A stretch of DNA of 64,000 nt from IMG/VR virus record IMGVR_UViG_2925891887_000001, one strand, 5' to 3'. The notes beneath the pieces were generated by a model. That model did not search any database. It had not been told where the DNA came from and was given only the letters and a program-made list of their open reading frames with translations. This DNA is from a virus (Duplodnaviria > Heunggongvirae > Uroviricota > Caudoviricetes). Below are positions 30,592 through 60,653 of the stretch, piece by piece. Both the position numbers and the translations under genes were made by a program. Numbering within the stretch: position 1 is the stretch's first letter; each line of letters opens with the position of its first letter.

Positions 30592-31845
30592 GTGGAGAAC
30601 ACCTCCACGCTTGATTCATTGGTGAAACAACTTTTCTTTTGCCAAACCACAAAAGAAAAACACATGAGCCTTTATGTTATATCAACATTTAGGTTGGTCA
30701 CAATATTGCCTGTTAAAAGTGGAATTATCGTGAGCGAGCTGAAAGAGCTAATTGCCGAATTAGATTTTGAACAATGGTTGGATACTGAAGGTATCGTTTA
30801 TCGACGTGGAGGCGTGAGTGCTCGCGGTCGTGAAGTGAATATCAAAGAGTGTCCGGTATGCGGCAGCTCCAACTGGAAGGTATATTTCAATCTGACCAGT
30901 GGCGTCGGCAAATGCTTCGCTGGTGATCATCCCGAAGAGATTCAGTTCAATAAGCTGGTCTTCCTCAAGCACTACAGCGGTAAATCACGACGACAGTTCG
31001 AGGAATATGTGCAGAACGCTCTTCTTTCCCAGGGGTGGACACCAAAGAAAGAAGAGCTAGTGCTTGCAAGCACAGTCGAGTTAGAGGGGCCAGTTGCACT
31101 CCCTCGTCATTACGAGCTTCCTATAGATGGCCGTCTTCCAGACTATCTGGTTGAACGAAACATATCACCTGAAATGGCAAAGTATTTTGACCTACGATAC
31201 TGCGTCGAAGGCAAGCACGCTTATGTAGATCCGTATACAGATCAGGTAAAAGGGCAGATATTCGATATGCGAATACTGATACCGGTTTACGATCTGGATG
31301 GGGTAATGAAGACATTTCAGGGACGAGACATTACCGGTACAGCAGAACGCCGCTACCTCTTTCCTATGCAGCTTCCAGCTTCAGGTAAATTTCTCTACAA
31401 CGGCCATAATGCAGTCGGCAAACAGACTGTAGTTGTCTGTGAGGGTTCGTTCGATGTTATGGGGGTCAAACGAGCTATTTTCGACGAAGAAACATTACGT
31501 GATTACGTGGAGCCAATAGGAACGTTCGGGATGCATCTATCTGGCAACACCACTCAGGATGCAGAAGATCAGTTGGGCGCGTTCCTGACGCTCAAGGCGC
31601 GTGGATTACGTAATGTGATCATGATGTGGGATAGTGAAAAGCAAGCTATACGAAACACGATGGCCGCAGCCAGGCGACTGACCAGTATTGGTCTTAATGT
31701 CAAAGTTGCGTGTTTGGGCGAGGAAGGACTCGACCCCGGCGATGCGACACCGGGGCAGATTATCAAAGCCTACTATTGCGCAAAACCTTATTCACGACAG
31801 CTTGAACTTTTAAGCAAGGTAAAAGGTATAGCAGCATTAGTTTGA
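30592..31845 (+). CDS. DNA primase (zinc ribbon plus TOPRIM)
   Basis: CPVCGSSNW...CFAGDH zinc-binding motif and TOPRIM-like acidic motifs (VVVCEGSFD); start uncertain. Confidence 0.65.
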   Translation: MENTSTLDSLVKQLFFCQTTKEKHMSLYVISTFRLVTILPVKSGIIVSELKELIAELDFEQWLDTEGIVYRRGGVSARGREVNIKECPVCGSSNWKVYFNLTSGVGKCFAGDHPEEIQFNKLVFLKHYSGKSRRQFEEYVQNALLSQGWTPKKEELVLASTVELEGPVALPRHYELPIDGRLPDYLVERNISPEMAKYFDLRYCVEGKHAYVDPYTDQVKGQIFDMRILIPVYDLDGVMKTFQGRDITGTAERRYLFPMQLPASGKFLYNGHNAVGKQTVVVCEGSFDVMGVKRAIFDEETLRDYVEPIGTFGMHLSGNTTQDAEDQLGAFLTLKARGLRNVIMMWDSEKQAIRNTMAAARRLTSIGLNVKVACLGEEGLDPGDATPGQIIKAYYCAKPYSRQLELLSKVKGIAALV

Positions 31846-33090
31846 ACCAGTATTAGTCACGTAAACATTGACCGAAAATGATTTAACTTCTGTGTTGAAG
31901 TTGTCAGTCATTACCGCGAGGTAGGCATTCTTGGTATCTCTGAATTGCTTCAGGATGATTTGAACGTTATCGGTGCAAACAAACGAGGTAGCCAGATTGC
32001 CTCCTTTCTCTGAAAAATCCTTCAAGAAGGTGCAGTCAACTTTGCCATCATTAGCGGTGAAGACGGCATCATCACCCTGCCAGGTAAATGTTGCGTTAAC
32101 GCCTTTATCAATGGATTTAGCAATAAGTCGCTGAGTGTCAGATTTGGCATTTTGCTGTTTTGAAGGCGAACGGAACGTACCTTTTGCTTTCATTGCAGCA
32201 ACGTTTTCGCAGCCCGTTTCGTCATCTTTATCGCAAGCAGCTTGGTAAAGCTCTGATGCTTTCCGATAATCCTGTTTGACGCCCAATCCCTTAAGATACA
32301 TGTAACCAAGGTGGTTCATGGCATAATCATTTCCTAAGCTGATTGCTTGTTCTAAAAGACTTCTGGCCTTCGAATAGTCTTTTTTTATACCTTCTCCATG
32401 CATCAACTTGTATCCAAGCGCGCTCATGGCGTTATTATTTCCTAATTCAGCTGCTTTCAAGTACCACTTAATTGCCTCTTTATTGTTGCGCTTAACAGCA
32501 ACACCATCGTCGTACATAGAGCCTAGCCCATACATTCCTGCGGCATTTCCACTATCCGCAGCCTTTTTATAAGATTTAAATGCTTTCTTGTAATCTTTCG
32601 GAACTCCCTTACCGTATTGATATAAATATCCCATATAGGCAAGCGAAGGTATATCACCAGCTTCTACTGCTAGTTTGTGATATTTTAAAGCAGCTTCTGG
32701 GTCCTCCTTTCCAGTCCAACCTCGTTCGTATATAACGGCAAGATTATGGTAAGCACTGCCGTTGCGAGCATTTCCTGCTAGTTTGTAGTACTCAACGGCC
32801 TTATTTAGATCTTTATCTACTCCCTTCCCAATTGTGTACATAACCCCAAGCGCATAATATGCTACTTTATCTCCCTTTTCTGCGGCGAGATCGATCCACT
32901 TCTTGGCCTCTACTAAATCCTCATCAAAGCCATTAGCCCCATCCAAATAATTTGTCCCTAACGCACTTTGTGCTGTGGTATCTCCTGCGGTGGCGGCGTC
33001 GATCAGCGTTTGTTTATTATCTGCGTTAACGTATCCAGGGCCGAAAAGCAAAGCTAATGCCAGCAACGATGAAGGTTTTATGAGTTTCAT
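31837..33090 (-). CDS. secreted Sel1-like repeat (TPR-like) protein
   Basis: Signal peptide then multiple about 36-aa repeats of Sel1 type (A..YYKLAA..G...A...LG.MY..G.GV..D); only large minus-strand gene in the replication block. Confidence 0.7.
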   Translation of the reverse strand: MKLIKPSSLLALALLFGPGYVNADNKQTLIDAATAGDTTAQSALGTNYLDGANGFDEDLVEAKKWIDLAAEKGDKVAYYALGVMYTIGKGVDKDLNKAVEYYKLAGNARNGSAYHNLAVIYERGWTGKEDPEAALKYHKLAVEAGDIPSLAYMGYLYQYGKGVPKDYKKAFKSYKKAADSGNAAGMYGLGSMYDDGVAVKRNNKEAIKWYLKAAELGNNNAMSALGYKLMHGEGIKKDYSKARSLLEQAISLGNDYAMNHLGYMYLKGLGVKQDYRKASELYQAACDKDDETGCENVAAMKAKGTFRSPSKQQNAKSDTQRLIAKSIDKGVNATFTWQGDDAVFTANDGKVDCTFLKDFSEKGGNLATSFVCTDNVQIILKQFRDTKNAYLAVMTDNFNTEVKSFSVNVYVTNTGSN

Positions 33091-38931: not shown

Positions 38932-40194
38932 TTACTTTGCATAGTCGCCCAATTTTAATATTTCGCGCTTATATTCATTAACCATGCTACTGGATTCAGT
39001 ATAAATTCGATTTAAAAGATTATCGTTATCTTTATTTTCATTTATCTTAATTAGTGCTAATTTATATTCATAGTCATCAAATGCCACAATTAAATGGTGG
39101 CCTGGGATTATATCTTCGTCACTCTTAAAGTATATATCTTCAAGTATGTAATCTAGTTGATTAGATTTTCTTTTCTCGATGTAATCTTCAGCCATAGCTA
39201 TTACATCATTCCTGTCATTTAACCTGTTTTTTTCGGAAGGCACATCTTCGTAATGTTGCACGATTGAACAACCAATAAGGCGTGGGATGTAAACGTCAAA
39301 ATGAGTAACTCTATCATTCGCGGTTTTAAGTAGTTCCTCAAAGTAGTTTCTTACATGTAAAGGCAACTTCTCAAAGTAATCATTAATTATAGGAGAACAA
39401 GGAGTTTTATAATTCATAAGAACCGACGGTACGAGCTTTGGGTGTCGAAACATCCAGTCCCTTTTAACGTCCGATGGAACATAATAACTTTTAATGATAT
39501 TATCAAAATAATTTATCATTCGAGATTTGAATATTTTGTTGAATCTAAGGTTTATGAATGTATCCAGATAAGGCATATTTGAATAAGCATCATCAAAAAA
39601 TATTTCATCATTGAAAAAATCATATTTATTCAATAAACAACACAGTTTTTCCGAATTAATATGTTCACAATAATCGATTTTTAATCCAAAGATAGCAATG
39701 ATCAACTTCATCTGAGGTGGGATTTTAAAAATTAATTGTGACACATACGCTCTTTTTTCCTTGAGACATTCCCCATCAATATAAAATGAACCATCCACAT
39801 ACTCAAATATATTAATAATATGCTTCACATACTGTATTACCTCATGCTGTCTTACCAATGGATAATATAGTCTATGTAACTCATCGCTGTTTAAATTAAT
39901 TTTGTGTTTATCGATAATTTGTTTTGCAAGAAGACATAACTCATCATGTTGATTTAATAAGGAATCAAACCATTGTTTAAATGCACTCTTTCGCATTTCG
40001 AACAATGATTCAGTTGTTAATTGAAGGGCTGAAAAAGCTGCTTTTGCACTTTTTCTCGCTTCGTAGGCATTCCATGCTGTTGCTATAAAAGCAAATGCTG
40101 TAGCCAATGTTCCAACAGTTTGACCATTTAAAACAACCCAATCCCAAAAAATGACGGTGAGCAGTAGTATAATAATGAAAATTAAAAAAGGCAT
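38932..40194 (-). CDS. AT-rich membrane-anchored protein of unknown function (cargo gene)
   Basis: 420-aa ORF, two N-terminal hydrophobic helices, strongly AT-rich, adjacent to tRNAs and an integrase. Confidence 0.55.
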   Translation of the reverse strand: MPFLIFIIILLLTVIFWDWVVLNGQTVGTLATAFAFIATAWNAYEARKSAKAAFSALQLTTESLFEMRKSAFKQWFDSLLNQHDELCLLAKQIIDKHKINLNSDELHRLYYPLVRQHEVIQYVKHIINIFEYVDGSFYIDGECLKEKRAYVSQLIFKIPPQMKLIIAIFGLKIDYCEHINSEKLCCLLNKYDFFNDEIFFDDAYSNMPYLDTFINLRFNKIFKSRMINYFDNIIKSYYVPSDVKRDWMFRHPKLVPSVLMNYKTPCSPIINDYFEKLPLHVRNYFEELLKTANDRVTHFDVYIPRLIGCSIVQHYEDVPSEKNRLNDRNDVIAMAEDYIEKRKSNQLDYILEDIYFKSDEDIIPGHHLIVAFDDYEYKLALIKINENKDNDNLLNRIYTESSSMVNEYKREILKLGDYAK

Positions 40195-42309: not shown

Positions 42310-42559
42310 TGTTACAACCTTTGCGCGTTCAATTCTCTCTGGTAAGTGCTTACCGATATTACATCAAAGGTTAGGGTTGTAAAGCTATTATCATTTTTTC
42401 GATAGGCACTTAAAAGACCGGTTAAAGGCCATTGCACGGAGAAAAATTAGCCCAAAACAGGTAAGAAAATTAACTTGCATATGATATGAATGTATTCAGT
42501 ATTGATATAAATTTTAGTAGTATTCCTTACCATAGTATAAGTTAGAATGGATTGATTGA

Positions 42560-42772
42560 ATGAACACCACTATTTCCAGCCTAATCGCTCTTGAGATCGG
42601 ACACGTACAGAAATTAGCTGATGAGTGTGTAGCTGACATCCTCACCGATCTACCGAATGAGCAGATTCAGGTTGGTGTGAATGACACAACTGGCTTTATA
42701 TTCGAACTTAACAACAAACGCTTCACGCTTCTCAATATCGGCTCCGGGTCTTTAGCCGTCAGAATCTGTTAA
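42560..42772 (+). CDS. hypothetical small protein
   Basis: 70-aa ORF divergent from the HTH regulator gene. Confidence 0.4.
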   Translation: MNTTISSLIALEIGHVQKLADECVADILTDLPNEQIQVGVNDTTGFIFELNNKRFTLLNIGSGSLAVRIC

Positions 42773-42870: not shown

Positions 42871-44979
42871 ATGTCTAAAAAACGTTCCATCAAAGAGGTT
42901 CAGGACTTCCGTGACAGTGTAAAACGAGTAGTCGCTCTCCTTTCAGGTAAAAACATCCCTGTTGCAGAACGAGGGGACGACGCTTATGTACGCTATAACG
43001 ATGATGGAGAGCCAATTCTCGTAAACATCCCATCAATCCCGGATAACGCAACACCGGCATTGATGAATGCTGTGCGCGGATTTCTCGATCATGAGGTTGC
43101 TCACATTTTGTTTACCGATATTCGTGTGTCCAACAAAATGAGAGAAAAAGGACGCGTTCCTTCCTGGTCGCTATGGAATGCCTTAGAAGACGTGTTCATC
43201 GAGCGAAAAATGGGTCAGGTCTTTAACGGAACAAGACGTAATCTGATGGCAACTCAGCGCCTTATAATCGAAAAAGTCTTTAAACCAAAGGCTTCAGAGG
43301 CTATTGCTTATTGTGGCAAAGATCAGCGCGCGCTTTTTCTAAACTTCTTTCTCTGTCCGGTTGTAAGAGCCTGGGATGGCCAAGCACCGTTCGTAGATTT
43401 CATGGATGAACATTGGCCTGTCATTGAGAAACCAATTTCATTATTAAAAGAACATGGTATCGATGTGGCCGTGCGTAACATGTCTTGCACCGAGGATTGT
43501 GTAAAGGTGGCTGCGACCATAGCTAAGATCCTCAAAGACACTGAAAGTGAAAGCAAAGGTAAGGAGTCAGCTCCGGGAAAAACTTCCGATCCTTCAGACG
43601 CTGACCAGACGGATGCCTCTGGAGAAAACAATGAAGACAACGAAGATCATGAGACTCCCTCAGTGTTAGATAATCACAAATCTATCAAATCAGAATCACA
43701 TAGTAAGTACAAACATGATAATAACAACAGTGATGATTCAGATAATTCTGAATCATCAGAAACAATATTCGATGATACAGAAAATGATAAAGAGGTATCA
43801 GATTCTGATGCTTCTGATAACGCGGCGTCAGAATCATTAACCGCTGACCACGAAAAAAGAAAAACGACAGAAGACGGCTCTTCAGATATCCCAACTCCGT
43901 CAAAAATGAGTCTGGAAGAGGCTTTAGAGGAGCTGGATAGCATAGAAGATGAAGTCGGAGGCATGACAGAAGATGCTCTATCCGAAACGATTAAAAGCGA
44001 GTTAACAGAAAGCTCGAAAAGCGAATACAGGCCATACAATCGCTCATACGACTTCATCGGCTCGATTGATCAGGCAGAAGCCCATATCAAACGGCTTATT
44101 AAAACATTCTCCGATATTGATTTGGGAGGATATCCAATCAGCCGCTATCGCATCGTTCCTGAAGGCAACCAGCTCTTCGACAAATATATTGAAAAGCATC
44201 TTTCGTCAGGTGTTTCGTCGACGCTGGCAAAAGACCTGGAGCGAGCAATAGCAAGCAGAAACAGAGTTCAGTTTATACCGGGCCAGCGTCGGGGGCGCAT
44301 TCATGGTTCTAGTATCTACAGATTAGCAATGAATGATGCTCGCGTGTTTCGTAAAAAAGAAGAATCTAAAGCCGTTAACGCCTGTGTTCAACAAGTGATT
44401 GATTTATCAGGTTCAATGAGTGGTATAACGATTAAACTGGCTCTTGCAAGTGCATATACCATCGCCGATGCCCTTGATCGAATAAATGTTCCCAACATTA
44501 TCACTGGCTTCACTACATTTGGTAGTCATATGGCGGCAGGAGAACTTAAGGCTGTCAAGTATGAGTTCTCTCGCTTTGAATCTTTAATGCTACCTATCAT
44601 CAAAAATTGGAATGAAAAGGTAAATTCTCGCGAAGTTCGCTCACGTATGGGGTGCGTAGGCTACACATTCCCACTTCTTAATAACGTGGATGGTGAAAGC
44701 ATAGCCAGCCTTGCATCGTTATTTTCCGGTCGCATGGAGGACAGGAAGATCATGCTTGTTCTGAGTGATGGCGCGCCGTGGGCTGTTGGGAGAGGTTTTG
44801 ACGCTCATTTGCGTTCAGTTGCGAAGCAAATTGAAACGCAGACTGATATTGATTTGATGGCAATTGGCATCATGACTGACGCACCGGAGAGATTTTACTC
44901 AAATCATGCCCTGGTAACGAGCGTTGATAGTCTTGGTTCATCTGTAGTTACTGAACTATCTCGTATCATTTTAAAGTGA
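42871..44979 (+). CDS. von Willebrand factor A (vWA) domain protein with acidic Asp/Glu/Ser-rich linker (CobT-like)
   Basis: MIDAS motif DLSGSMSG in the C-terminal part; long acidic low-complexity segment; paired with the downstream AAA+ gene. Confidence 0.65.
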   Translation: MSKKRSIKEVQDFRDSVKRVVALLSGKNIPVAERGDDAYVRYNDDGEPILVNIPSIPDNATPALMNAVRGFLDHEVAHILFTDIRVSNKMREKGRVPSWSLWNALEDVFIERKMGQVFNGTRRNLMATQRLIIEKVFKPKASEAIAYCGKDQRALFLNFFLCPVVRAWDGQAPFVDFMDEHWPVIEKPISLLKEHGIDVAVRNMSCTEDCVKVAATIAKILKDTESESKGKESAPGKTSDPSDADQTDASGENNEDNEDHETPSVLDNHKSIKSESHSKYKHDNNNSDDSDNSESSETIFDDTENDKEVSDSDASDNAASESLTADHEKRKTTEDGSSDIPTPSKMSLEEALEELDSIEDEVGGMTEDALSETIKSELTESSKSEYRPYNRSYDFIGSIDQAEAHIKRLIKTFSDIDLGGYPISRYRIVPEGNQLFDKYIEKHLSSGVSSTLAKDLERAIASRNRVQFIPGQRRGRIHGSSIYRLAMNDARVFRKKEESKAVNACVQQVIDLSGSMSGITIKLALASAYTIADALDRINVPNIITGFTTFGSHMAAGELKAVKYEFSRFESLMLPIIKNWNEKVNSREVRSRMGCVGYTFPLLNNVDGESIASLASLFSGRMEDRKIMLVLSDGAPWAVGRGFDAHLRSVAKQIETQTDIDLMAIGIMTDAPERFYSNHALVTSVDSLGSSVVTELSRIILK

Positions 44980-45074
44980 ACAAAACAGCCTTAACGATAA
45001 GTAACCACTTACGATATATAATGATATATTTATATAAGAAGTTGAACGCTCATTAGAGAACAAAGGAAAAACGC

Positions 45075-46310
45075 ATGACGACTACTGCACTGCAAAATGA
45101 AAAAAATCCTTCTGATTACCTTGTTTGCAAGTGGTGCGGCAAATCATTTCACTATTTTAAGTCCCATGTAGCCAATGGTAATTGCGAGGGCATTCCTGAG
45201 TCAGTAAAAGATGCCGATCCTGACACCGTACTGAAAATGTACACAACGCAGTTTCCAGATGAACCAACGCTATCGAAAAAGGCACTTGATGCAATTCAAG
45301 CTAAACGTGCCGAGCAAAAAAGCGAAATGGCCAAATCTTCTGGCTTGACCAGTAGCCCTGGCTACACAGGCACAGTTGAGTACAAGACAGATCTGGTCGC
45401 AGCTCACGAACTGCTAAACGTAACAGTGGAAGAACTCGGAACAAAACGTGGGACGCCGCTCATGGTTAGCGTCAACGTCAATACGCCGTATCCAGAGTTC
45501 GTTCCCGAAGTGAAGAAAGGCTACGTATATGGCGACTTCGAACTGATCAAAGATATTTTCATGATGCTTGAACTTGGCATACCTGGCTATTTGTGGGGTC
45601 ATGCAGGAACAGGCAAATCGTCATTGCCTACACAGCTATGTGCTTTGCTCAATCGTCCGTTGATCCGTGCCCAACATACAGCATCAATGGAAGAGGCACA
45701 TGTTACGGGGCAAATTCTGGCGCGTGATGGCTCTACGTATTTCGAACCTGGCTTGCTTGCGCTCGCAATGAAGCATGGCTGGGTTTACCTCGCGGATGAA
45801 TACGACTTTGCGTTTCCACAAATTCTTGGCGTGTATCAGCCAGTGCTGGAAGGTGAAGCGTTGGTCATCAAAGAGGCAACTCCAGAATGGCGTCGCATTA
45901 CTCCGCATGAACGGTTTGCTTTCATTGGCACTGGCAACACGAACGGATCTGGTGATGAAACCGGCTTGTACCAGGGTACAAACATCCAGAACGCCGCGAA
46001 CTTTTCGCGTTTTGGCATCGTTTCGAATGTGAAATACATGAGCAAAGACGCAGAGATCAACATGTTGACAAATGCAGGCATCGTGGATGAATACGCTGAA
46101 AAGATGGTTAAGTTTGCCGGTATCGTTCGCGATGGATACGAAGAACACCTCATTAGTCAGCCAATTGGCCCTCGTGAACTTTTGTTGTCGGCCAAGATTG
46201 GAATGATGCGAGGCGACTTTGTGACAGGTATTGAGCGTTCTTTCATTAACAAACTCCCTTCAGCTTCTGCACAAGCGGCTCGTGAAGTTGTTCAAAAAAT
46301 ATTTGGTTAA
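45075..46310 (+). CDS. MoxR/CobS-like AAA+ ATPase
   Basis: Walker A GHAGTGKSSL, Walker B-like VYLADEYD; 411 aa. Confidence 0.65.
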   Translation: MTTTALQNEKNPSDYLVCKWCGKSFHYFKSHVANGNCEGIPESVKDADPDTVLKMYTTQFPDEPTLSKKALDAIQAKRAEQKSEMAKSSGLTSSPGYTGTVEYKTDLVAAHELLNVTVEELGTKRGTPLMVSVNVNTPYPEFVPEVKKGYVYGDFELIKDIFMMLELGIPGYLWGHAGTGKSSLPTQLCALLNRPLIRAQHTASMEEAHVTGQILARDGSTYFEPGLLALAMKHGWVYLADEYDFAFPQILGVYQPVLEGEALVIKEATPEWRRITPHERFAFIGTGNTNGSGDETGLYQGTNIQNAANFSRFGIVSNVKYMSKDAEINMLTNAGIVDEYAEKMVKFAGIVRDGYEEHLISQPIGPRELLLSAKIGMMRGDFVTGIERSFINKLPSASAQAAREVVQKIFG

Positions 46311-46490
46311 TCGTGCGTAAAGGATGTTTCGGCTCTCTTATCGCTGCTTCTGAAACTGGTAAGGCTTGTCTGGTGTGTCCAGACAAGCCCGATTGTCACC
46401 AATCAGCAAAAGAAGTTGCGATTTCGATGCATGGGAAGTTCGTAGGCTTCCCCAATGACAAAATCAAAAAAACCAGAAAGGTAAAAACAC

Positions 46491-48854
46491 ATGAAGGCAC
46501 TGATGGTTCGAACTGACTTCTCACTTGGGGAGTCGGCTCTAAAAGCAGAAAACGCGGTGAAGATTGCCAGAGAAGCTGGCTACACCGCTGTAATTTCAGC
46601 AGATAGCATGAATATTGCGAGCGTTATTCCACTACAACGTGCCGCTGGTGACGACATGGCGGTTATTTGTGGTGTGAAACTAAACATTGTTGATGATCCC
46701 ACATACGAGCACCGGGCTAAACTTGCTAAAGAATCTATGAGATGTATGGAATCATTAGAGCGAGGACGTAACTACTCGTTTACCGCTCTAATTAAAAATG
46801 AGAAAGGATATCGCGACATCTGCGAACTAATGACGGCGGCCAACACACGAGAACAGTTCTACTTTGTACCGCGTCTCTCGCTCGAACAGTTGGTTTCTAC
46901 ATATGCCAAAGGCAACATCATCCTGCTTACTTCCGACATCGGTAGCGTGTTCCAACGCAACGATTTTGCAAAAATCATAAGCACACTGATTACAGCGGGT
47001 GGAAAAGACAACTTCTATAGTGTGGTTTATCCGCACCCTACCCCATTCTACGACCAGATTAACGTCCGGGCGATGAAAGTCGCCAGCGCATTGAAAATAG
47101 AGCCAGTGGCGTTCTATCCCGCTTATTACGAATCGATCGACGATGCAGACATTAAAGACATTGCGCACATGGTTACGAACAACATCAAAATCGACCAGCC
47201 GCATCGTCTGCGTATCCCCCACCAGCGAGATAACGCCGTCAATGGTCGCCGCCATCTCCTTGAGGCGCTTAAAGCCTTCTCCGTTCGCATGGATGTGCCG
47301 GTAACAGCTGCAATGGCCTCAACAACGCAGGATACCATTATCGATGCCTGCACATGGCGCTGGCATGAATTGCCGCCAGCACTGCCAAAGATGGCAGACG
47401 ACGAGCCTGCAACGCTGATGAAACTGGCTGTTGCAGGGCTGCGTAAACGTCTTACCACAAAAGAGTTTGGCTACACACCACCTGCTTCTGAGAACAGGGT
47501 TTATGTTGAGCGGCTAAAGTACGAAATGGACACGCTGACTCGCCTGGGATTCTGTGGTTACTTCCTGATGGTGCGCGATCTGATGAATCATAGTCGTGAA
47601 ACTGGCATTCCCGTTGGGCCTGGTCGTGGTTCCTCTGCCGGTTCTCTGGTGGCGTGGTGCATAGGCATAACCAACGTCGACCCAATCCGTCACGGTCTTC
47701 TGTTTGAGCGTTTCATCAACCCTGAGCGTCTCGACTTGCCGGATGCGGACTTGGACTTCAGCCAGGCACGTCGCCATGAGGTGATCGAGTATCTGAATGA
47801 ACGCTACGGCGAAGATTACGTTGCAGGCATTCCGAACTTCACCTACCTGGGCGCAGCCTCTGCACTACGTGATACCGCTCGTATTTATGGTGTGGAGTCC
47901 GCAGATATGGCGGTATCAAAAGAGCTGAAGAACGTCGAGGATGATAGCCTTCCATTGGAGGAGCTGCGCGAACAACTGGCAAGTCTCGACAAATACGCAA
48001 CAAAATATCCTGATGCATTCAATGCAGCCTGCAAGTTACAAAGCCTTATGCGTGGCTTTGGTAGACATGCGGCAGGGATGATCGTAGCAGGTGTTCCTCT
48101 GACAGAACGTACACCGGTTGAACGCCGTGGTGACGCGCGTTGTATCGCATTTGACAAGCGTTACTGCGAGGCTATGGGCCTAATTAAGCTGGACGTGCTT
48201 GGCCTGGCAACTCTCGATTTGCTCGATAGTGCAAAACGCTACATAAAAGAGAACACAGGTGAAGATATCAATCTTGATGCCATTTCTCTTGAAGATCGCA
48301 AGGTGCTGGATGGTTTTGCTGCAGGGTATACACAGGGCGTATTCCAGCTTGAATCAGGCCCAATGCGCAAGCTGCTTAAAGATTTAGGTGGTGGAATTGA
48401 GCCAATGAGCTTTAAAACGGTCGTCGCTACAACTGCGCTCTTCCGACCTGGCCCGATTCAATCCGGCATGTTGGACGATTATGTGTCCGTGGCCAAAGGC
48501 TTCATGGCCCCACATTCCTTACACCCAATGCTGGACGACATCTCTCGCGACACAAACGGAGTTCTGATTTATCAGGAACAGATCATGGCTGCTACGCGAA
48601 TCTTGGCGGGGTTCTCAATGGCGGAAGCAGACTCGGTCAGGAAAGCGATCGGGAAAAAAGATATGGAGAAAATGAAATCCATTGGCGGCGACTTCATTAA
48701 GCGAGCGGAGGAAGGCTGGGTGACAGTGTCACTGGATGATGGTTCTACGAGAAAAATCCATAAAGCAGCACGCCTACTTTGTGCTGATGGTGAGCGTCGC
48801 ACTTATGCCGAAGCAATGGCAATAAATGCCGACATAACGAGCTTCGATATTTGA
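46491..48854 (+). CDS. DNA polymerase III alpha-type (DnaE-like) replicative polymerase, N-terminal part
   Basis: Polymerase core block GRGSSAGSLVAWCIGITNVDPIRHGLLFERFINPER; ORF ends in non-conserved sequence just before the finger-domain motif. Confidence 0.75.
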   Translation: MKALMVRTDFSLGESALKAENAVKIAREAGYTAVISADSMNIASVIPLQRAAGDDMAVICGVKLNIVDDPTYEHRAKLAKESMRCMESLERGRNYSFTALIKNEKGYRDICELMTAANTREQFYFVPRLSLEQLVSTYAKGNIILLTSDIGSVFQRNDFAKIISTLITAGGKDNFYSVVYPHPTPFYDQINVRAMKVASALKIEPVAFYPAYYESIDDADIKDIAHMVTNNIKIDQPHRLRIPHQRDNAVNGRRHLLEALKAFSVRMDVPVTAAMASTTQDTIIDACTWRWHELPPALPKMADDEPATLMKLAVAGLRKRLTTKEFGYTPPASENRVYVERLKYEMDTLTRLGFCGYFLMVRDLMNHSRETGIPVGPGRGSSAGSLVAWCIGITNVDPIRHGLLFERFINPERLDLPDADLDFSQARRHEVIEYLNERYGEDYVAGIPNFTYLGAASALRDTARIYGVESADMAVSKELKNVEDDSLPLEELREQLASLDKYATKYPDAFNAACKLQSLMRGFGRHAAGMIVAGVPLTERTPVERRGDARCIAFDKRYCEAMGLIKLDVLGLATLDLLDSAKRYIKENTGEDINLDAISLEDRKVLDGFAAGYTQGVFQLESGPMRKLLKDLGGGIEPMSFKTVVATTALFRPGPIQSGMLDDYVSVAKGFMAPHSLHPMLDDISRDTNGVLIYQEQIMAATRILAGFSMAEADSVRKAIGKKDMEKMKSIGGDFIKRAEEGWVTVSLDDGSTRKIHKAARLLCADGERRTYAEAMAINADITSFDI

Positions 48855-48902
48855 GAATTAATTTATAAGATAAGAAAACAATTTGTTTAGTGAGTCTTAG
48901 AA

Positions 48903-49637
48903 ATGCCGAGTACGAAGTACAAAATCACAGAAGAATGGTTACGTCAGCGTTACATGGTTGACCTGATGAGAAAAGAAGACATTGCCGCCGAAGCTGGTTG
49001 CAGCAAGGCAAATATTGACCGCTTATTAGCCAAATGGGGGATCAGGCGCGGAAGCGCGCGGATCTCCGCTACCCCAGCCTGGAATCGTGGCAAAAACAAA
49101 AATAATGACGAACGTATGAAGCGTCTCTCCGAAGCCCGGACTGGCACTGGCAACCCTATGTATGGGAAAACCTCGTGGAATGCCGGTCTGCGTGCTGATA
49201 TCGATGAGCGAGTGGCCACCGTTTCGAAAAAGCTAACCGGCAGAACAATCCGCGCGGAGACGAAGGAAAAGCTGGCGGCTGCCAAACGCGGAAAGATCGG
49301 AGAAGAAGCGAACAACTACAAAGGTGGCATCATCGTAAAAACCAACGGCTACATGATGCAGCTGGTTGGTAACAATGGCGTTTCGCAATACGAATACGTT
49401 CATCGATTGATAGCGAAAGAACGTCTCGGTCGGGAGCTACGTGACGATGAACATGTCCACCATATTAACCGCGATACGATAGATAACGCCCCTGGGAATC
49501 TTGTAGCACTTCCAGAAGACGCCCACATTCGCCTGCATAGTGAAATGCGTGAAGAGATATGGAGCTGGGAGCGCCAACGGAACTGGCTGGCCTCCAATGG
49601 GTATGAGTTCGTGAAGATTGATGAGGTGACTGCATGA
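48903..49637 (+). CDS. HNH homing endonuclease inserted within the split DnaE gene
   Basis: HNH motif (HHINRDTIDNAPGNLVALPEDAHIRLH) and repeated basic NUMOD-like motifs (WNRGKNK, MYGKTSWNAGL). Confidence 0.75.
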   Translation: MPSTKYKITEEWLRQRYMVDLMRKEDIAAEAGCSKANIDRLLAKWGIRRGSARISATPAWNRGKNKNNDERMKRLSEARTGTGNPMYGKTSWNAGLRADIDERVATVSKKLTGRTIRAETKEKLAAAKRGKIGEEANNYKGGIIVKTNGYMMQLVGNNGVSQYEYVHRLIAKERLGRELRDDEHVHHINRDTIDNAPGNLVALPEDAHIRLHSEMREEIWSWERQRNWLASNGYEFVKIDEVTA

Positions 49638-50803
49638 AAATTACCGGTGTTGTCGAAGAGAGCAATGGCCTGACGCACGAACGAGCCGAAGAAATCTGGA
49701 ATATGTTTGAGAAATCCGGCGCGTATGCCTTCAACAAATCACACTCTGTTGCTTACTCCTTAATCAGTTATCAATCTATGTGGTTGAAAACTCATTATCC
49801 CGCAGAGTTTTTCGCTGCTGCTCTCACTATTCTTGGCGAAGATAAACACCAGGGGCTGGTTAAAGATGCGCTGACCTATGGCATTCGCGTATTGCCACCA
49901 GACGTTAACGTGTCATCTAACCGAATCGAGATCCGCACGCTTGAAGATGGCAGCCAGGTGCTGTATGCGCCCTTCTCTGCTGTGAAGGGGTGTTCTGAGA
50001 ATGGCTGCCAAGCCATCATGAGAGCGCGAGAAAAAGTTGGCGGCAAATTCGAGTCACTGGCGCAATTCGAAGAAGCTGTCGAGAAACGTGCCTGTAATAG
50101 TCGAGTGCGCGAATCGCTGCAAAAAGTAGGGGCGTTTGCATCCATCGAGCCAGGCAGTCTGCCAGCAACTGATCCAGAGCGCCTACGCGACCAGGCTGAA
50201 TTGATGGGAAACCTTGTCATAGACGCAGTTAAAGCCTCACGTCCGTTTGAGATGAACCCCAAACGTTCGGCTGAAATTAACGTACTCATGACGCGGATGG
50301 CGGCTGAAATGGGCTTAGGTGATGAACTAATCCGCCCCAGCATTGGTATTAAGCCGAAAATCATGATCATTCTGGACAATGCGAACGGCAATGATGCTCG
50401 AACCGGTTACTTTATGGAGAACGGATACGACGACTTTAAGGCCAAGCTATTGACGGCTGGAGATTTACGCATGGGCGATCTCTATGTCACAGGTGTTTGC
50501 AAGAAGGTTAAAGACAAAGAAAAAGACTACACCAAAGACGAGATCGGCCAGTTCACCGACTTTATGCGTGAAGAGATCAATCTGGTGCGTCCGACCTATG
50601 TGCTGACGTGTGGCAGCCGGGCAACTTCATTGTTTAACAACAAAAACAAGCCATCCGATTTGGTCGGCAGGAAGGAGTATCTTCCAGACCTTGACGTTAC
50701 TGTCTTTTACGGGTTTAACCCCAACATTCTTTACTTCAGACCTGAAGAGGGAGAACGACTAGAAGCGATATTAGCCGACGTAGCAGAAACTATTAAGACG
50801 TGA
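49634..50803 (+). CDS. DnaE-like polymerase, C-terminal part
   Basis: Begins with the conserved finger motif region (GAYAFNKSHSVAYSLISYQSMWLKTHYPAEF); own ATG overlapping the HNH stop. Confidence 0.75.
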   Translation: MKITGVVEESNGLTHERAEEIWNMFEKSGAYAFNKSHSVAYSLISYQSMWLKTHYPAEFFAAALTILGEDKHQGLVKDALTYGIRVLPPDVNVSSNRIEIRTLEDGSQVLYAPFSAVKGCSENGCQAIMRAREKVGGKFESLAQFEEAVEKRACNSRVRESLQKVGAFASIEPGSLPATDPERLRDQAELMGNLVIDAVKASRPFEMNPKRSAEINVLMTRMAAEMGLGDELIRPSIGIKPKIMIILDNANGNDARTGYFMENGYDDFKAKLLTAGDLRMGDLYVTGVCKKVKDKEKDYTKDEIGQFTDFMREEINLVRPTYVLTCGSRATSLFNNKNKPSDLVGRKEYLPDLDVTVFYGFNPNILYFRPEEGERLEAILADVAETIKT

Positions 50804-53780: not shown

Positions 53781-56120
53781 ATGGCAAAAGGAAAATCCGC
53801 ACTGGCACTTGCTCTGAAAAAGAAAATCGGTAGCAACGACGAAATTCAGAAAGTAACTCATTGGATTGATACAGGCTTTCCACCGTTAAACAAAGCTATT
53901 TCTGGTCGTTACGATGGCGGCTTCCCATGTGGTCGTATCGTCGAAGTATTCGGTCCTCCAAGTGCAGGGAAATGTGTTACCGCAGACACCATGCTGCTGA
54001 CGGAGCGTGGAATGGTAACAGTGAAAGAGTTGTTTGAGATTGAAGGGTACAAAGCGACATGCACTACTCGCGATGTAGAGCATAACGTTGGACTCATCAA
54101 TGAAAATGGCGTGATAGAGAAGACCTCACACCTGACATGGAACAACCGTCGCAAATTCAAGCGTATTAAGCTGGCATCAGGCGGTTATATCGAGGCTACG
54201 TTCCGTCACCCAATCCGTGTGGTTGACGACTTAGGTAATGTCGTCTGGCGACATGCTGAAAAAATCAGTGTAGGCGACACGATTCCTTCAATGGTTGGCA
54301 CACATCAATTCGGCGATCAGCACCTGGATGCCAATATCGCAAAACTGATGGGCTATTTAATTGCTGACGGATACGTCGCCTCTGAAAATTCAGTGAATTT
54401 TTCTAACACAGATCCTTTCATCAAGGATGAGTACTACCGCCTCATTTCGCTGGTATCAGACAAGATGCCAGTTACGAGAAAACATAACGGCTCGGAAGAC
54501 CATGTGCTGTTTAGCAAAGAGGTGCGTTCGCTGCTTTTTAAAGAATATGGTCTGGAGTATGAGAAAGCTGCTGGCAAGCAGGTTCCGTTGAGTGTGCGTC
54601 GCGCCAATAGCGAGGCTCAAATTGCATTCCTTCGCGGCTACTTTGAGCTGGAATGCCACGTCAATGATGGTCGCTGCATTGAGGTTGTGAGCGCGAGTGG
54701 GCTGCTGCTACAGCAAATTCGCCTCATGCTCCTGAATCTGGGGATTACGTCAACTATCTCTGAAAAACACGTCGCGGGTTATGAAAATACATATTACCGG
54801 CTGTCATTCAGTGGCTCTAATTACGACCTTTTTCTGTCAACGATTGGTTTCGAATCTCCGGCACGTTTATCAGTGGCAACCAAACGGGACATTGGTTTTG
54901 ACCGCACTTACTCAGGCTATGTTCCGCACATCAGCGGCTTAGTGAAATCACTCTACGAGTCGCTCACCAAGACCACCCGTGAAGACTACGCTCTGGTAGA
55001 CCACGTTATTGGCCGCGGCGATCGTGTCGGAATAGACAAACTGCGAGAAATCTATGTCTCCTTCATTGGCAGAAAGAATCGTTTTAACGAGCATCTGTTT
55101 GCACAACTGGCAGCGGTAATTGGCTCTAACTTGTTCTACGACGAAGTCGTGGCTATTGAGGAAGGTGAAGCACCAACGTTCGACGTAGCGATGCCGGAAA
55201 CACACTCTTTCTGGTCTAACGGGATTATCAGCCACAACACATTCCTTGCAACAGCAGCGATGATCTCCGCTCAAAAACAAGATGGTCTGGCGGTATTCCT
55301 CGATCATGAAAACAGTTTTGACGTTGGCCTGGCTGTAGCCAATGGCCTGAACGCAGATGAGGATGACGGTCAGTGGGTCTACAAACAGCCGGATACCTTC
55401 GAAGACTCCGTAGAGCTGATCGGCACAATCCTCAAGCTGGTGCGCGACGAAGAGCTTATTCCGGAAACAGCCCCTATCTGCATCGTAGCCGACTCTCTGG
55501 CGTCGATGGTTCCGAACTCGAAGGCTGAGAAGTTCGACAAGATGGCAGAAGGCACTGCGAAAGACAAAGATCAGCTGAACATGAACGACAACACGGCGCT
55601 GGCGCGCGCGACAAGTGCGAACTTCCCTACTCTGGCGCTTTGGGCGCGTAAGTACAACGCGTGCATCATCTTCTTGAACCAGGTGCGTACCAAAATTGGT
55701 GTGATGTTTGGCGATCCGACTACGTCTCCGGGTGGCGACTCTCCGAAGTTCTACGCTTCTGTACGTATCCGTCTTGGTGCATCGGTGATGAAGGATGGTA
55801 AAGAGAAGATCGGCCAGGACGTAGGCGCAGAATGCATCAAAAACAAAGTTGCACCACCGTATGGCAAATGCACCTGGAAATTCTACTTCGATCCTACTCG
55901 TGGCCTCGACGTTATCGAATCGCTCGTCGAGTACATGCTGGAAGAAGGATACCTGCCAAAGAACGCCAGCGGGCGAGTTGAAATTGGTGACAAGAAATAC
56001 ACCAAATCGCAGATCGTCGAGATGTATCGGGAGAAGCCACTGGCTGAAATCATTGCGGCTTTGCAGGCAATCGACGACCGAAGAGCAAAAGACAACCCCA
56101 CCGAGTCAGTAGAAGAGTAA
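53781..56120 (+). CDS. recA: RecA recombinase precursor containing an intein
   Basis: Exteins (64 + 293 aa) align to bacterial RecA (GRIVEVFGPPSAGK | TFLATAA..., IIFLNQVRTKIGVMFGDPTTSPGG, KFYASVRIRLG); intein residues begin with Cys and end HN before Thr. Confidence 0.85.
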   Translation: MAKGKSALALALKKKIGSNDEIQKVTHWIDTGFPPLNKAISGRYDGGFPCGRIVEVFGPPSAGKCVTADTMLLTERGMVTVKELFEIEGYKATCTTRDVEHNVGLINENGVIEKTSHLTWNNRRKFKRIKLASGGYIEATFRHPIRVVDDLGNVVWRHAEKISVGDTIPSMVGTHQFGDQHLDANIAKLMGYLIADGYVASENSVNFSNTDPFIKDEYYRLISLVSDKMPVTRKHNGSEDHVLFSKEVRSLLFKEYGLEYEKAAGKQVPLSVRRANSEAQIAFLRGYFELECHVNDGRCIEVVSASGLLLQQIRLMLLNLGITSTISEKHVAGYENTYYRLSFSGSNYDLFLSTIGFESPARLSVATKRDIGFDRTYSGYVPHISGLVKSLYESLTKTTREDYALVDHVIGRGDRVGIDKLREIYVSFIGRKNRFNEHLFAQLAAVIGSNLFYDEVVAIEEGEAPTFDVAMPETHSFWSNGIISHNTFLATAAMISAQKQDGLAVFLDHENSFDVGLAVANGLNADEDDGQWVYKQPDTFEDSVELIGTILKLVRDEELIPETAPICIVADSLASMVPNSKAEKFDKMAEGTAKDKDQLNMNDNTALARATSANFPTLALWARKYNACIIFLNQVRTKIGVMFGDPTTSPGGDSPKFYASVRIRLGASVMKDGKEKIGQDVGAECIKNKVAPPYGKCTWKFYFDPTRGLDVIESLVEYMLEEGYLPKNASGRVEIGDKKYTKSQIVEMYREKPLAEIIAALQAIDDRRAKDNPTESVEE
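53973..55238 (+). mobile_element. intein (422 aa) with LAGLIDADG homing endonuclease domain, inserted in the RecA Walker A motif between K and T
   Basis: In-frame element CVTADTMLL...IISHN followed by +1 Thr; LAGLIDADG-like motifs LMGYLIADGYV and FLRGYFELECHV. Confidence 0.8.
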
Positions 56121-58904: not shown

Positions 58905-59437
58905 ACCGCTGACAGCATACACAATCAACTACCGCTGATAGCATATCGAGAGTCTATCTCACCGCTCACAGCATACTTTACTCGATTCTTTACCGCTGAC
59001 AGCATACTTAAGAAATTGCATGAATAATGTGTCCCGGTATGGGTATAACCAGAACAAAATTACCGCTGGCAGCATACGAATGTCTGACATATACCATTAA
59101 TTACCGCTGATAGCATATCCAAACAAAAATTCCTCAATAACACACCGCTGACAGCATACGTTCTATCAGGGAGTAGCAGGCAATAAATGCCTTTCACTAC
59201 AAGCAACCAGCGCAATAGCAATAGAATGTTAGTGAGCGCAAACCTATATGGAATGCACTCTTCGAGGTTAGTAACCACTGGGGAGGTATGACAGAGCATT
59301 GAGTGGTGATAGATGATTTACCGCTCACAGCATACGTTCATCTCACTATACCGCTGGTAGCATATCTTTAACCGTTCACAGCAAACTTTTCAGAAAAATA
59401 GCCGCTGATAGCATACATTTCACCGCTGACAGCATAT
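58905..59437 (+). repeat. iteron array downstream of rep: about 12 direct copies of a 16-bp unit (consensus ACCGCTGACAGCATAC), incA-like
   Basis: Copies read at 58905, 58931, 58961, 58992, 59062, 59103, 59144, 59320, 59350, 59371 (degenerate), 59401, 59422, all in the same orientation. Confidence 0.85.
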
Positions 59438-60531
59438 CAAAGCAGTTTGAGACTATTGGAAAGGATCTCAATCATCTTGATATTTTCAGGCGTCAAATTC
59501 TGCGAAAGTTCGGTTATCTTGTTGATAATGTTCTGTTTGGCATCAATTTCCCCAGCTTTCTCATCTGGTTTTTTGGGTTCGATGTCTTCAGGTTTTGGCG
59601 GTGCGACTTTGAGTTTTGGATTGCGGCTGTGAATCTGGATATAGATCGACCGCCCACGCTTAATCTCGCTGTATTCGAGATAGCCCAAATCTTGGAGAGC
59701 TTTTAAGCCGTTACGTATAGTCTGATTCTGCGAGCTGACATTCCTGCTACTCAAATTGAGTCGCGCACGCAATCGAGCAAGCGATACCGGCGCAGGCTTG
59801 GTTGGAAGACTTTCGATGAAGGTGTACAGAGCCTGTGCTGTTTCTTTGCGTGGTAGCTTATTGATAACCTTTAACTGCAAAAGAACCTTATGGTCAAAGC
59901 GATATAGTTCGGCCAGCTTCGGTTCTGCATAGAACACCACCGTATCTTTCTGCTCGTTGTAGTCCACGCTATTGATGAGGTGCACCATCAGAAGCGAGAT
60001 CTTGTTAGAGCCGTCGACGTTCTTTTCTTCATACGTTCTCTGGAAAGACAGAGTTGTACGCATGATCTTCAAAAGACTGTTTGTAAGCCGGTCGCGGAGT
60101 GTTTTGCGGATCTGTGACGATGGATAGCCACAAAACTTAGCAAATTTCGTGATGCTTAACTCGACACGACCGTTAGGTTCGCCGTATTCTGCCAGCGAAC
60201 GCACAACGCCCACCCACGTTTTGAAATCATGATCCATGTCGAGACGAGGACCGGTTATCTTGATATCGGAATAGCCTTCAGAACGGGCTACTTCGAGCTG
60301 GACAAGCTCCTTTGAAGCATCGATCTCATTTGGCTTGTTACGTTTACTGTATTTTGTTCCCTTAAGCGTGGGGACGAACAACCCCAGTCGCATCAACGCA
60401 ATTGGTTGGACTGTATTGTTGCTATTAGGGACAAGTTCCCCTGTGTACAATTCAAGGGAACCTTCTTCAAAGTTGTCGATGTTATCTTCTACTTCTTTGT
60501 TATTTTTACCTTTTTTATTTTTTGTGGACAT
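59437..60531 (-). CDS. replication initiator (iteron-binding Rep protein) candidate
   Basis: 364-aa ORF flanked on both sides by the same 16-bp iterons; basic N-terminus; start MSTKNKKG at the DnaA-box-like TGTGGACA pair; assignment from replicon architecture, not from a protein motif. Confidence 0.6.
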   Translation of the reverse strand: MSTKNKKGKNNKEVEDNIDNFEEGSLELYTGELVPNSNNTVQPIALMRLGLFVPTLKGTKYSKRNKPNEIDASKELVQLEVARSEGYSDIKITGPRLDMDHDFKTWVGVVRSLAEYGEPNGRVELSITKFAKFCGYPSSQIRKTLRDRLTNSLLKIMRTTLSFQRTYEEKNVDGSNKISLLMVHLINSVDYNEQKDTVVFYAEPKLAELYRFDHKVLLQLKVINKLPRKETAQALYTFIESLPTKPAPVSLARLRARLNLSSRNVSSQNQTIRNGLKALQDLGYLEYSEIKRGRSIYIQIHSRNPKLKVAPPKPEDIEPKKPDEKAGEIDAKQNIINKITELSQNLTPENIKMIEILSNSLKLL

Positions 60532-60551
60532 GTGGACACCTTTGTCATTCA

Positions 60552-60653
60552 ACCGCTGACAGCATACTTGATTTGCCGCTGACAGAATACCAAAAACAGT
60601 TGGCAGCATACGGTGAACCGCTGACAGACTATCAATTACCGCTGACAGCATAC
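60552..60653 (+). repeat. iteron array upstream of rep (origin-proximal, about 5 copies at roughly 21-bp spacing)
   Basis: Copies at 60552, 60575, 60596 (degenerate), 60617, 60638 of the same 16-bp unit. Confidence 0.8.

Follow-up and report, generated by a model that had tools for sequence, protein, structure and literature searches.

A CobS/CobT-like motor and adaptor pair with a conserved HExxH motif in the replication module of an SSU5-like phage-plasmid

The cobS and cobT genes are core genes of T4-like cyanophages, and the cobST cluster occurs widely among tailed viruses, where it has been proposed to hijack the CobN of the host (Liu et al, 2021; PMC8651126). A MoxR ATPase paired with a metallopeptidase-von Willebrand factor A (vWA) protein was described in T4-like (group 2.2) jumbo phages, with a proposed role in virion assembly that draws on analogy to the MoxR/vWA proteins needed for tail development of the Acidianus two-tailed virus (Iyer et al, 2021; PMC7824862). 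For the cellular adaptor CobT, a crystal structure of the N-terminal domain (CobT_N) comprises one helix, a three-stranded sheet, and eight helices, a fold likened to peptidase M48 subfamily C (M48C), and a shaft of the protein is described as entering the pore of the CobS ring (bioRxiv 10.64898/2026.07.21.739949); NorD uses an equivalent finger (PMC13036017). Here, we analyze a pair that belongs to this known kind of system, that is, viral cobST and the MoxR and metallopeptidase-vWA pair of T4-like phages. It lies in a 64,000-nucleotide stretch of DNA from a tailed virus (IMG/VR record IMGVR_UViG_2925891887_000001, Caudoviricetes; hereafter the window) and consists of two intact open reading frames (ORFs): a CobT-like adaptor gene of 702 codons (42871..44979, + strand), encoding an M48-like N-domain, an acidic disordered linker, a shaft, and a vWA domain with a MIDAS (metal ion-dependent adhesion site), and a gene for a CobS-like MoxR-class AAA+ ATPase of 411 residues (45075..46310, + strand).

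Our favored reading, to which we assign a probability of about 0.5, is that the two proteins form an ATP-driven, MIDAS-targeted remodeling machine, probably proteolytic, which acts early in infection on a client protein and is not a B12 enzyme. The most informative feature of the locus is one that the first-pass annotation missed, namely, an N-terminal domain of 230 residues with a near-invariant HExxH motif. As judged from sequence comparisons, the pair is homologous to the motor CobS and the adaptor CobT of cobaltochelatase. The adaptor matches Pfam CobT over residues 9–293 (E = 1e-26) and CobT_C over residues 492–701 (E = 3e-82), both above gathering thresholds, as well as phrog_1576 (1002 bits). 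A profile made from a 93-sequence adaptor alignment (A1), whose members share 27–61% identity, matches PDB CobT with E = 1e-62, the shaft and the MIDAS included. The ATPase matches Pfam AAA_5 (E = 2e-15), PDB CobS (9ujv_A; E = 1e-25 over residues 142–411), and phrog_249 (358 bits), and its AlphaFold2 model, with a predicted local distance difference test (pLDDT) score of 87.8, has NorQ and CbbQ as top Foldseek matches (template modeling score 0.83–0.88). The hidden Markov model (HMM) comparison with the CobS/CobT, MoxR, and vWA families that had been recommended at first pass thus gave matches far beyond chance.

The N-domain (residues 1–230; 42871..43560, + strand) is predicted by AlphaFold2 to consist of a helix, a three-stranded sheet, and nine helices (helix 7–25; strands 31–34, 39–42, and 48–53; helical from 62 to 230), with pLDDT above 90. 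This order of elements is that of the solved CobT_N, and the two are linked through Pfam CobT (PF06213), which the N-domain alone matches with E = 7e-22. On the first long helix past the sheet, family conservation marks an HExxH motif, HEVAH (H74, E75, and H78; 43090..43104, + strand). The next long helix carries EDVFIE (E106, D107, and E111; 43186..43203, + strand), preceded by N103; from the A1 alignment, this stretch holds a candidate third zinc ligand.

Conservation of this motif is nearly complete. When the 230 residues were compared with 1.84 billion cluster representatives, 1126 of these matched at E ≤ 1e-3, and among the best 150 of the 1126 HExxH lies inside the first 200 residues in 148 (148 of the 149 informative ones). 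One of the two exceptions is a fragment missing the region, and the other (P0387) reads DHQVAL. The motif is invariant in all 120 close homologs, and in A1 the residues G70, D73, H74, E75, H78, E106, D107, E111, G120, and R166 are invariant, with N103 nearly so. When the N-domain alignment was used to look for related loci, it returned only close SSU5-like relatives (67–100% identity) and zero new lineages; comparison of the N-domain, as a single sequence, with PDB sequences yielded chance matches only (HLA chains and others).

Cellular proteins show a different pattern. HExxH is absent from four of four cellular CobT or CobT-like proteins (CobT of Sinorhizobium and Cereibacter; CobT-like proteins of Pandoraea and Caballeronia), in which the residues aligned to this region read RGLGDSMALRKACHD or similar, and the alignment of the A1 profile to solved CobT begins only just past it. 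Sequences and models together suggest that the phage clade retains a complete zincin-type site on a fold that would serve cellular CobT only as a docking surface; we found no statement in the literature that the viral clade keeps, and cellular CobT has lost, the catalytic motif. In zincins, the Glu of HExxH is the catalytic general base and not a metal ligand. Because this Glu is invariant here and yet would not be a metal ligand, hydrolysis appears favored over bare metal binding.

Several points weigh against an early-acting, proteolytic machine. Pfam peptidase models gave zero matches to the N-domains of 23 members at E-values up to 5, and fold searches with the full-length adaptor model returned vWA matches only. 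The spacing from HExxH to the candidate Glu (28–33 residues) is shorter than in M48 enzymes. The adaptor of Pseudomonas phage nickie (locus L010, 8974–11058) reads DSEISK where relatives have DHEVAH and has Ser at the position of D107; the zincin site is lost in this phage, while the MIDAS and the synteny are retained. At least two lineages (nickie and P0387) have thus lost the motif but kept the other features, and proteolysis is therefore not indispensable to the module. As for gene location, the synteny discussed below is, within one phage supercluster, partly inheritance, and early phage regions also hold metabolic genes, which makes location weak evidence of function. A literature search found no experimental work on any viral member, and the well-studied relatives (CobST, BchID, and NorQD) all insert metals, whereas none cuts proteins.

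This last point, that metal insertion is what the closest characterized relatives all drive, would suit a chaperone without proteolysis, in which the pair opens a phage or host metalloenzyme and loads its metal, with HExxH as the metal donor; the client might be the PHP domain of the adjacent DnaE or an enzyme of nucleotide metabolism. We consider such a chaperone unlikely. A PHP-domain dnaE does follow the pair in the SSU5-like supercluster, but cyanophages and the podovirus ICP2 have the pair with other polymerase types, so DnaE cannot be a client in all cases. Among cellular relatives, a CobS/CobT-like pair of Pandoraea (L096, 4141–6978) sits right after ureG and the urease operon, and one of Caballeronia (L095, 4217–6933) sits beside genes for a GTP-binding protein and an amidohydrolase, both away from B12 genes. 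This placement hints that CobST-type motors serve other metalloenzymes and suggests reuse of the module for other metal clients; however, these two cellular pairs lack HExxH, so metal delivery does not need it, and a catalytic base kept invariant fits poorly with a donor role. The loss of the motif in nickie and one other lineage and the placement of the cellular pairs keep a nonproteolytic function in play.

The C-terminal half of the adaptor is intact as well. In the AlphaFold2 model of the full protein (mean pLDDT 85.4), the C-terminal module starts with a strand, beta0, and a pair of helices wrapped around the vWA domain (residues 386–461; 44026..44253, + strand); this segment aligns to the same segment of PDB CobT (9uka_G) and has Y386, D394, E457, and R458 as conserved residues. 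It is followed by a shaft or finger (residues 462–501; 44254..44373, + strand), predicted as a long beta-hairpin with a helical tip (strand 465–472, helix 479–485, and strand 493–499). Profile alignment to 9uka_G gives as its counterpart the CobT shaft Q373–R413, which enters the CobS ring pore. G471, G475, L482, and F493 of the shaft are conserved at ≥ 90% in A1, and D489 and R491 at 87% in a 128-sequence alignment. The vWA domain (residues 503–702; 44377..44976, + strand) has a complete MIDAS made of D511, S513, S515 (nucleotides 44401–44415), N605, and D633, all five of them invariant or 99% conserved and in line with those of solved CobT. The motif DLSGSMSG (residues 511–518; nucleotide 44401 onward) and the 702-residue vWA protein that contains it are present as the first-pass annotation had described them.

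Between the N-domain and this module lies a Ser-, Asp-, and Glu-rich linker (residues 231–385; 43561..44025, + strand), which composition and AlphaFold2 predict to be disordered, with a net charge of about −34. The acidic segment that had been placed at about 43.55–43.95 kb is real, with a slightly longer extent (nucleotides 43546–44025): its residues 226–385 include 31 Ser, 25 Glu, and 23 Asp and have a net charge of −34, and pLDDT falls below 50 at about residues 245–337. In relatives with N- and C-domains 75–77% identical, the linker shares only 33–37% identity and ranges from 145 to 249 residues, and a tandem-repeat search of it found just a 2.6-copy 9-mer and no repeat array. It is a disordered, fast-evolving segment typical of the family. 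The epithet "extraordinary" given to it at first pass does not hold, as acidic disordered linkers of about 90–250 residues are standard in the CobT architecture of cells and phages alike. Three ORFs on the − strand (43323..43640, 43674..44057, and 43685..43903; together 43323..44057) overlap this stretch. We agree with the earlier judgment that they are spurious: since the gene that contains them is coding and conserved, and its linker varies by indels among relatives, they are best read as non-coding by-products of a sense strand rich in purines (61% A+G).

The ATPase combines conserved Walker motifs with an additional N-terminal segment. The Walker A motif GHAGTGKS (residues 175–182; 45597..45620, + strand), within the GHAGTGKSSL (residues 175–184; nucleotide 45597 onward) already noticed in this 411-residue MoxR/CobS-like protein, has G175, G178, G180, and K181 invariant in the ATPase alignment (A2). 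Walker B, VYLADEYD (residues 237–244; 45783..45806, + strand), has D241 and E242 invariant in A2, and the motif occurs in 113 of 113 full-length homologs. PDB CobS and Sinorhizobium meliloti CobS align only from residue 142, leaving an extension (residues 1–141; 45075..45497, + strand) without a counterpart in cellular CobS. This extension carries a C-x2-C...H...H element (residues 18–31; region of nucleotides 45126–45185), predicted as a beta-beta-alpha unit (strands 16–17 and 24–25, helix 28–33; pLDDT 80–94). C18 is invariant, and 112 of the 113 full-length homologs have C..[CD] among their first 45 residues. The element is probably a zinc finger, with putative zinc binding.

Taken as an ATP-driven, MIDAS-targeted remodeling machine, the pair could work as follows. 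The 411-residue protein would form a hexameric MoxR-class AAA+ motor, and the 702-residue adaptor would dock on it. Homology to CobST and NorQD, whose complexes have been solved, suggests that the shaft (residues 462–501) would be inserted into the ring pore and the N-domain bound to the lid of the ATPase. A client protein may then be gripped between the MIDAS of the vWA domain and the N-domain, with ATP-driven remodeling of the MIDAS-captured client coupled to cleavage by the N-domain, in a manner functionally like a two-piece FtsH; cobalt would not be inserted into a corrin. We propose remodeling together with cleavage because the phage adaptor, unlike cellular CobT, has an intact zincin signature on an M48-peptidase-like fold. 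The action is placed early in the lytic or replicative phase because the pair appears to be co-transcribed with replication genes, starting from the region beside a putative repressor gene. The client could come from the host or be one of the replication or recombination proteins of the phage.

A bolder version of this proposal, which we offer tentatively and think rather unlikely to survive in full, would make the pair a two-component AAA+ protease with MIDAS-selected substrate. Produced early, it would cleave or take apart a specific protein of the host, or a replication or recombination factor of the phage, and thereby enable phage DNA replication; cellular CobT would in that case descend from a protease adaptor of this kind and have lost catalysis. 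If this were true, the cobS/cobT genes tallied as "auxiliary metabolic genes" in marine viromes, which T4-like cyanophages carry among their core genes, would not be B12 genes.

The window is an SSU5-like phage-plasmid of Escherichia coli, an identity given by sequence matches and by the tail genes, Rep3-type initiator, integrase, and putative repressor that it encodes besides the pair. The Rep3-type plasmid replication initiator (59437–60651, − strand) fits a plasmid lifestyle. In sequence searches, a 4.1-kb stretch with the pair was 99.9% identical to many E. coli plasmids of ~110 kb and 98.5% identical to Escherichia phage Cyrano, while Salmonella phage SSU5 shows 75% identity over the 60% of the query that aligns. 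The host listed for PhiR41_1, a close relative, is MG1655. The pair is seen in SSU5-like phages and plasmids of Escherichia, Salmonella, Yersinia, and further Enterobacteriaceae and also in ICP2. As the element replicates in E. coli, the pair is open to ordinary genetics, whose outcome would bear on the origin of ATP-driven chelatases.

These data also bear on the B12 question. Virome studies routinely count viral cobS and cobT as cobalamin auxiliary metabolic genes, on the hypothesis that the viral CobS and CobT dock on host CobN and raise cobalamin (PMC8651126). The clear homology to both chelatase subunits, including the shaft, the MIDAS, and the lid-binding domain, is what this hypothesis has in its favor, but for the present pair we regard it as extremely unlikely. 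The NCBIfam equivalog TIGR01651 (CobT) scores 68.1 bits against a cut-off of 759.05, and TIGR01650 (CobS) 86.6 against 558.55, about 6–11 times below; by the standard of the NCBIfam curators, the two proteins are homologs and not orthologs of the chelatase subunits. There is no CobN among the large ORFs of the window, where the three ORFs above 1400 residues are a tape measure, a tip attachment protein J, and a tail fiber, and no cobN is listed in the annotated ~12 kb on either side of the pair in Cyrano and SSU5. With equivalog scores below cut-off and no CobN, the pair was not placed in a well-characterized metabolic pathway with its remaining genes elsewhere, the outcome that the first-pass annotation had named as refuting its view. 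The pair is found in 464 matching plasmid records (Escherichia, Enterobacter, Yersinia, Salmonella, Citrobacter, and others), although E. coli, to our knowledge, has no pathway for corrin-ring synthesis; Salmonella and Klebsiella have an anaerobic, CobN-independent route with CbiK. Moreover, the surface of the N-domain to which CobN is bound in the solved holoenzyme bears an intact peptidase-type site here, and the ATPase has the 141-residue extension without a cellular counterpart. A cobalamin label for the pair is thus opposed by the motif pattern, by the gene context, and by the lack of a CobN.

Existing labels vary. PHROGs lists the two genes as "unknown function" and "porphyrin biosynthesis". 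In Cyrano (L001, 12372–15811), the pair is annotated as "dimethylbenzimidazole phosphoribosyltransferase" and "cobalamin synthetase", which is a mis-annotation that confuses the CobT and CobS names of Salmonella with the unrelated chelatase subunits of the Pseudomonas type. The gene order is T then S in the window and S then T in cells. In two alphaproteobacteria (L008, 888–4960; L009, 266–4951), cobS-cobT is preceded by conserved genes for a BolA-family and a J-domain protein and not by cob genes.

Genomic context favors an early or replicative role over virion assembly, with the reservation that gene location is weak evidence. The structural genes of the window occupy ~0.1–26 kb, and the pair lies at 43–46 kb amid replication and recombination genes, where it follows a putative repressor gene of opposite orientation. 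Between 42165 and 51320, the + strand has no terminator-like site, and the pair appears to be transcribed together with the replication genes. As stated at first pass, it lies directly upstream of polymerase genes, with dnaE starting at 46491 and one 67-residue ORF in between. In Cyrano and SSU5, the order is helicase, primase, ligase ... cobT, cobS, small or sigma-70-like ORFs, dnaE, SSB, exonuclease, and RecA. The same replication-gene order recurs in ~100-kb environmental phages and an Ectothiorhodospira prophage (CobS 44–47% identical), in Pseudomonas phage nickie, and in Rhizobium phage RHph_X66, and identity across this synteny set, from the E. coli and Salmonella elements to the Pseudomonas, Rhizobium, and environmental phages, is 29–45%.

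More distant phages extend this picture. In the T4-like cyanophage P-RSM4, a homologous "peptidase" (HEVGH, DWSGS) and cobS lie between gp46 and the gp45 clamp, and in the podovirus ICP2 a homologous pair with HExxH and MIDAS lies directly upstream of the genes for primase, an AAA family ATPase, and polymerase. In Roseobacter phage CRP-810, the pair is in the order S then T near one end of the linear genome, among hypothetical, endonuclease V, and integrase genes. The pairs thus recur in several lineages, and our full-text literature searches found no tested role for them, in keeping with the earlier remark that CobS/CobT-like pairs recur in large phages and phage-plasmids without an established role. 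For the temporal class of cyanophage cobS, our literature search found nothing.

The homology of our pair to that of T4-like cyanophages (phrog_459; hmmsearch E = 1.6e-19; shared motifs) would extend to it the published proposal for the jumbo phage pair, namely, a virion-assembly chaperone with a processing protease (PMC7824862). We find this distinctly unlikely: here, in P-RSM4, and in ICP2, the pair is set amid replication and recombination genes, and a structural gene is adjacent in no lineage examined.

An early-acting machine could also be part of a conflict between phage and host, as a protease destroying a host immunity protein or as a vWA-MoxR sensor excluding other phages. Prokaryotic conflict systems commonly include vWA-MoxR modules (PMC7159879), and early expression would suit an anti-defense device, which would be a special case of our favored reading. 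Taken as a whole, a defense or anti-defense function seems highly unlikely, because PADLOC gives no significant match (the adaptor has a marginal one to DrmE, with E = 1e-3, and the ATPase has none) and because the pair is a conserved core at a fixed position over a very wide phage supercluster, unlike variable defense islands such as the KAP NTPase island of the window. A role as a defense system was rejected on the PADLOC results together with the replication-gene neighbors. The best PDB match of the N-domain profile, the Cas9 DNA-binding inhibitor AcrIIA26 (E = 0.006 over 49 residues), covers one helix (NxxEDxFIE) only and is probably due to chance. The KAP-family P-loop NTPase itself (568 residues, 26570–28276) lies in a low-GC island (0.34 versus ~0.47 elsewhere) and matches the PADLOC candidate defense system PDC-S49 with E = 2e-21.

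Small ORFs flank the pair. A 70-residue ORF (42560..42772, + strand; phrog_2627, of unknown function), included here for context only, is the first co-oriented gene past the divergent putative repressor gene, and both locus L007 and Rhizobium phage RHph_X66 have an equivalent small ORF ahead of cobT. In the window, the stretch that separates the repressor gene from the 70-residue ORF (42310–42560) contains several GGTAAG/CTTACC half-sites and a 21-nucleotide tandem direct repeat (42482–42523), which could be operators. The window-wide count of the GGTAAG/CTTACC pattern was non-significant, and sigma-70-like sites were fewer in a promoter scan than in shuffled sequences. Between cobS and dnaE, a 67-residue Cys-rich ORF (46313..46516, + strand; phrog_6337, likewise context only) overlaps the start of dnaE by 26 nucleotides; it is kept in SSU5 and shared by the E. 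coli and Salmonella elements. In distant relatives (L003, 11182–12365; L012, 12734–13934), this slot holds a sigma70_r2-like ORF and an ORF of ~170 residues.

The neighboring replication genes show peculiarities of their own. The dnaE gene is split here (46491–50803) into a 787-residue ORF (PHP, pol III alpha, and finger) and a 389-residue ORF (HHH_6 and a weak uracil-DNA glycosylase match), separated by a free-standing HNH_3/NUMOD3 homing-endonuclease ORF (48903..49637); in Cyrano and SSU5, it is a single ORF of about 1170 residues. Relatives L003–L007 (e.g. L003, 12387–15809) have a uracil-DNA-glycosylase-like domain at the C-terminus of the phage DnaE, to which the weak match here (49634–50803) corresponds. 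The RecA-like gene (53781–56120; 779 residues) contains an intein (Intein_splicing, 73–486) with a LAGLIDADG endonuclease (LAGLIDADG_3, 279–356), which is absent from the SSU5 recombinase; the Ectothiorhodospira prophage relative also has an intein in RecA. A Sel1-repeat protein of 417 residues (31837–33090, − strand) is encoded on the opposite strand inside the replication module. Finally, a 420-residue ORF (38932–40194, − strand) with a hydrophobic N-terminus and no Pfam or PADLOC match has the tRNA cluster on one side and a glutaredoxin gene on the other, a slot that looks like a variable accessory site, as Cyrano has different genes there.

Compared with known systems, the pair is of the same families and the same domain order as CobS/CobT (EC 6.6.1.2; CobSTN; PDB 9ujv and 9uka; bioRxiv 10.64898/2026.07.21.739949): the AAA+ subunit is of the ring type and has extra lid helices, and the adaptor comprises an M48-like N-domain, an acidic disordered linker, beta0 and two helices, a shaft, and a vWA domain whose MIDAS has five residues. 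Unlike the cellular proteins, the phage pair has no CobN in the window, an intact HExxH...E, an ATPase extension, a reversed gene order, and a site in a replication module. The pair of T4-like phages, equivalent to the "peptidase" and CobS core genes of cyanophages, was compared by means of P-RSM4, phrog_459, and cyanophage CobS, with the jumbo phage pair as defined in the text of PMC7824862. It is likewise adjacent, adaptor then ATPase, within a replication gene cluster, and here too the adaptor has an N-terminal HExxH, an acidic stretch, and a MIDAS of the form DxSGS. The similarity is remote: the P-RSM4 "peptidase" matches the A1 profile with E = 1.6e-19, our adaptor matches phrog_459 with E = 5.6e-7 over the motif region, and CobS matches cyanophage CobS in tblastn at about 1e-29, whereas the cyanophage adaptor has no Pfam CobT match; the phage type and the polymerase also differ.

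The features of MoxR-vWA chaperones (NorQD, CbbQO, and RavA-ViaA) are present as well, with helix-2 and pre-sensor-1 inserts in the AAA+ protein and a finger in the partner vWA protein. NorQ/NorD (PDB 9qh4–9qhg; PMC13036017) give the best structural matches to both predicted models; there, a vWA finger enters the ring pore and the motor remodels a linker, but NorD has no HExxH peptidase-like N-domain, and the complex inserts iron into a membrane nitric oxide reductase as its client. The Rubisco activase CbbQ/CbbO, RavA/ViaA, and Rea1/Midasin have other clients and no protease-type domain, and Midasin is one chain. With peptidase M48, the adaptor shares HExxH and a candidate acidic ligand downstream, on a predicted sheet-plus-helices fold, and with FtsH, a functional analog in which an AAA+ domain is fused to an HExxH peptidase, the pair has in common that an AAA+ motor is joined by a zincin-type site. 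Unlike both, the phage pair has no peptidase HMM match and no membrane segments and carries its motor and peptidase-type domain on separate chains, and, by analogy, its choice of substrate would go through the MIDAS.

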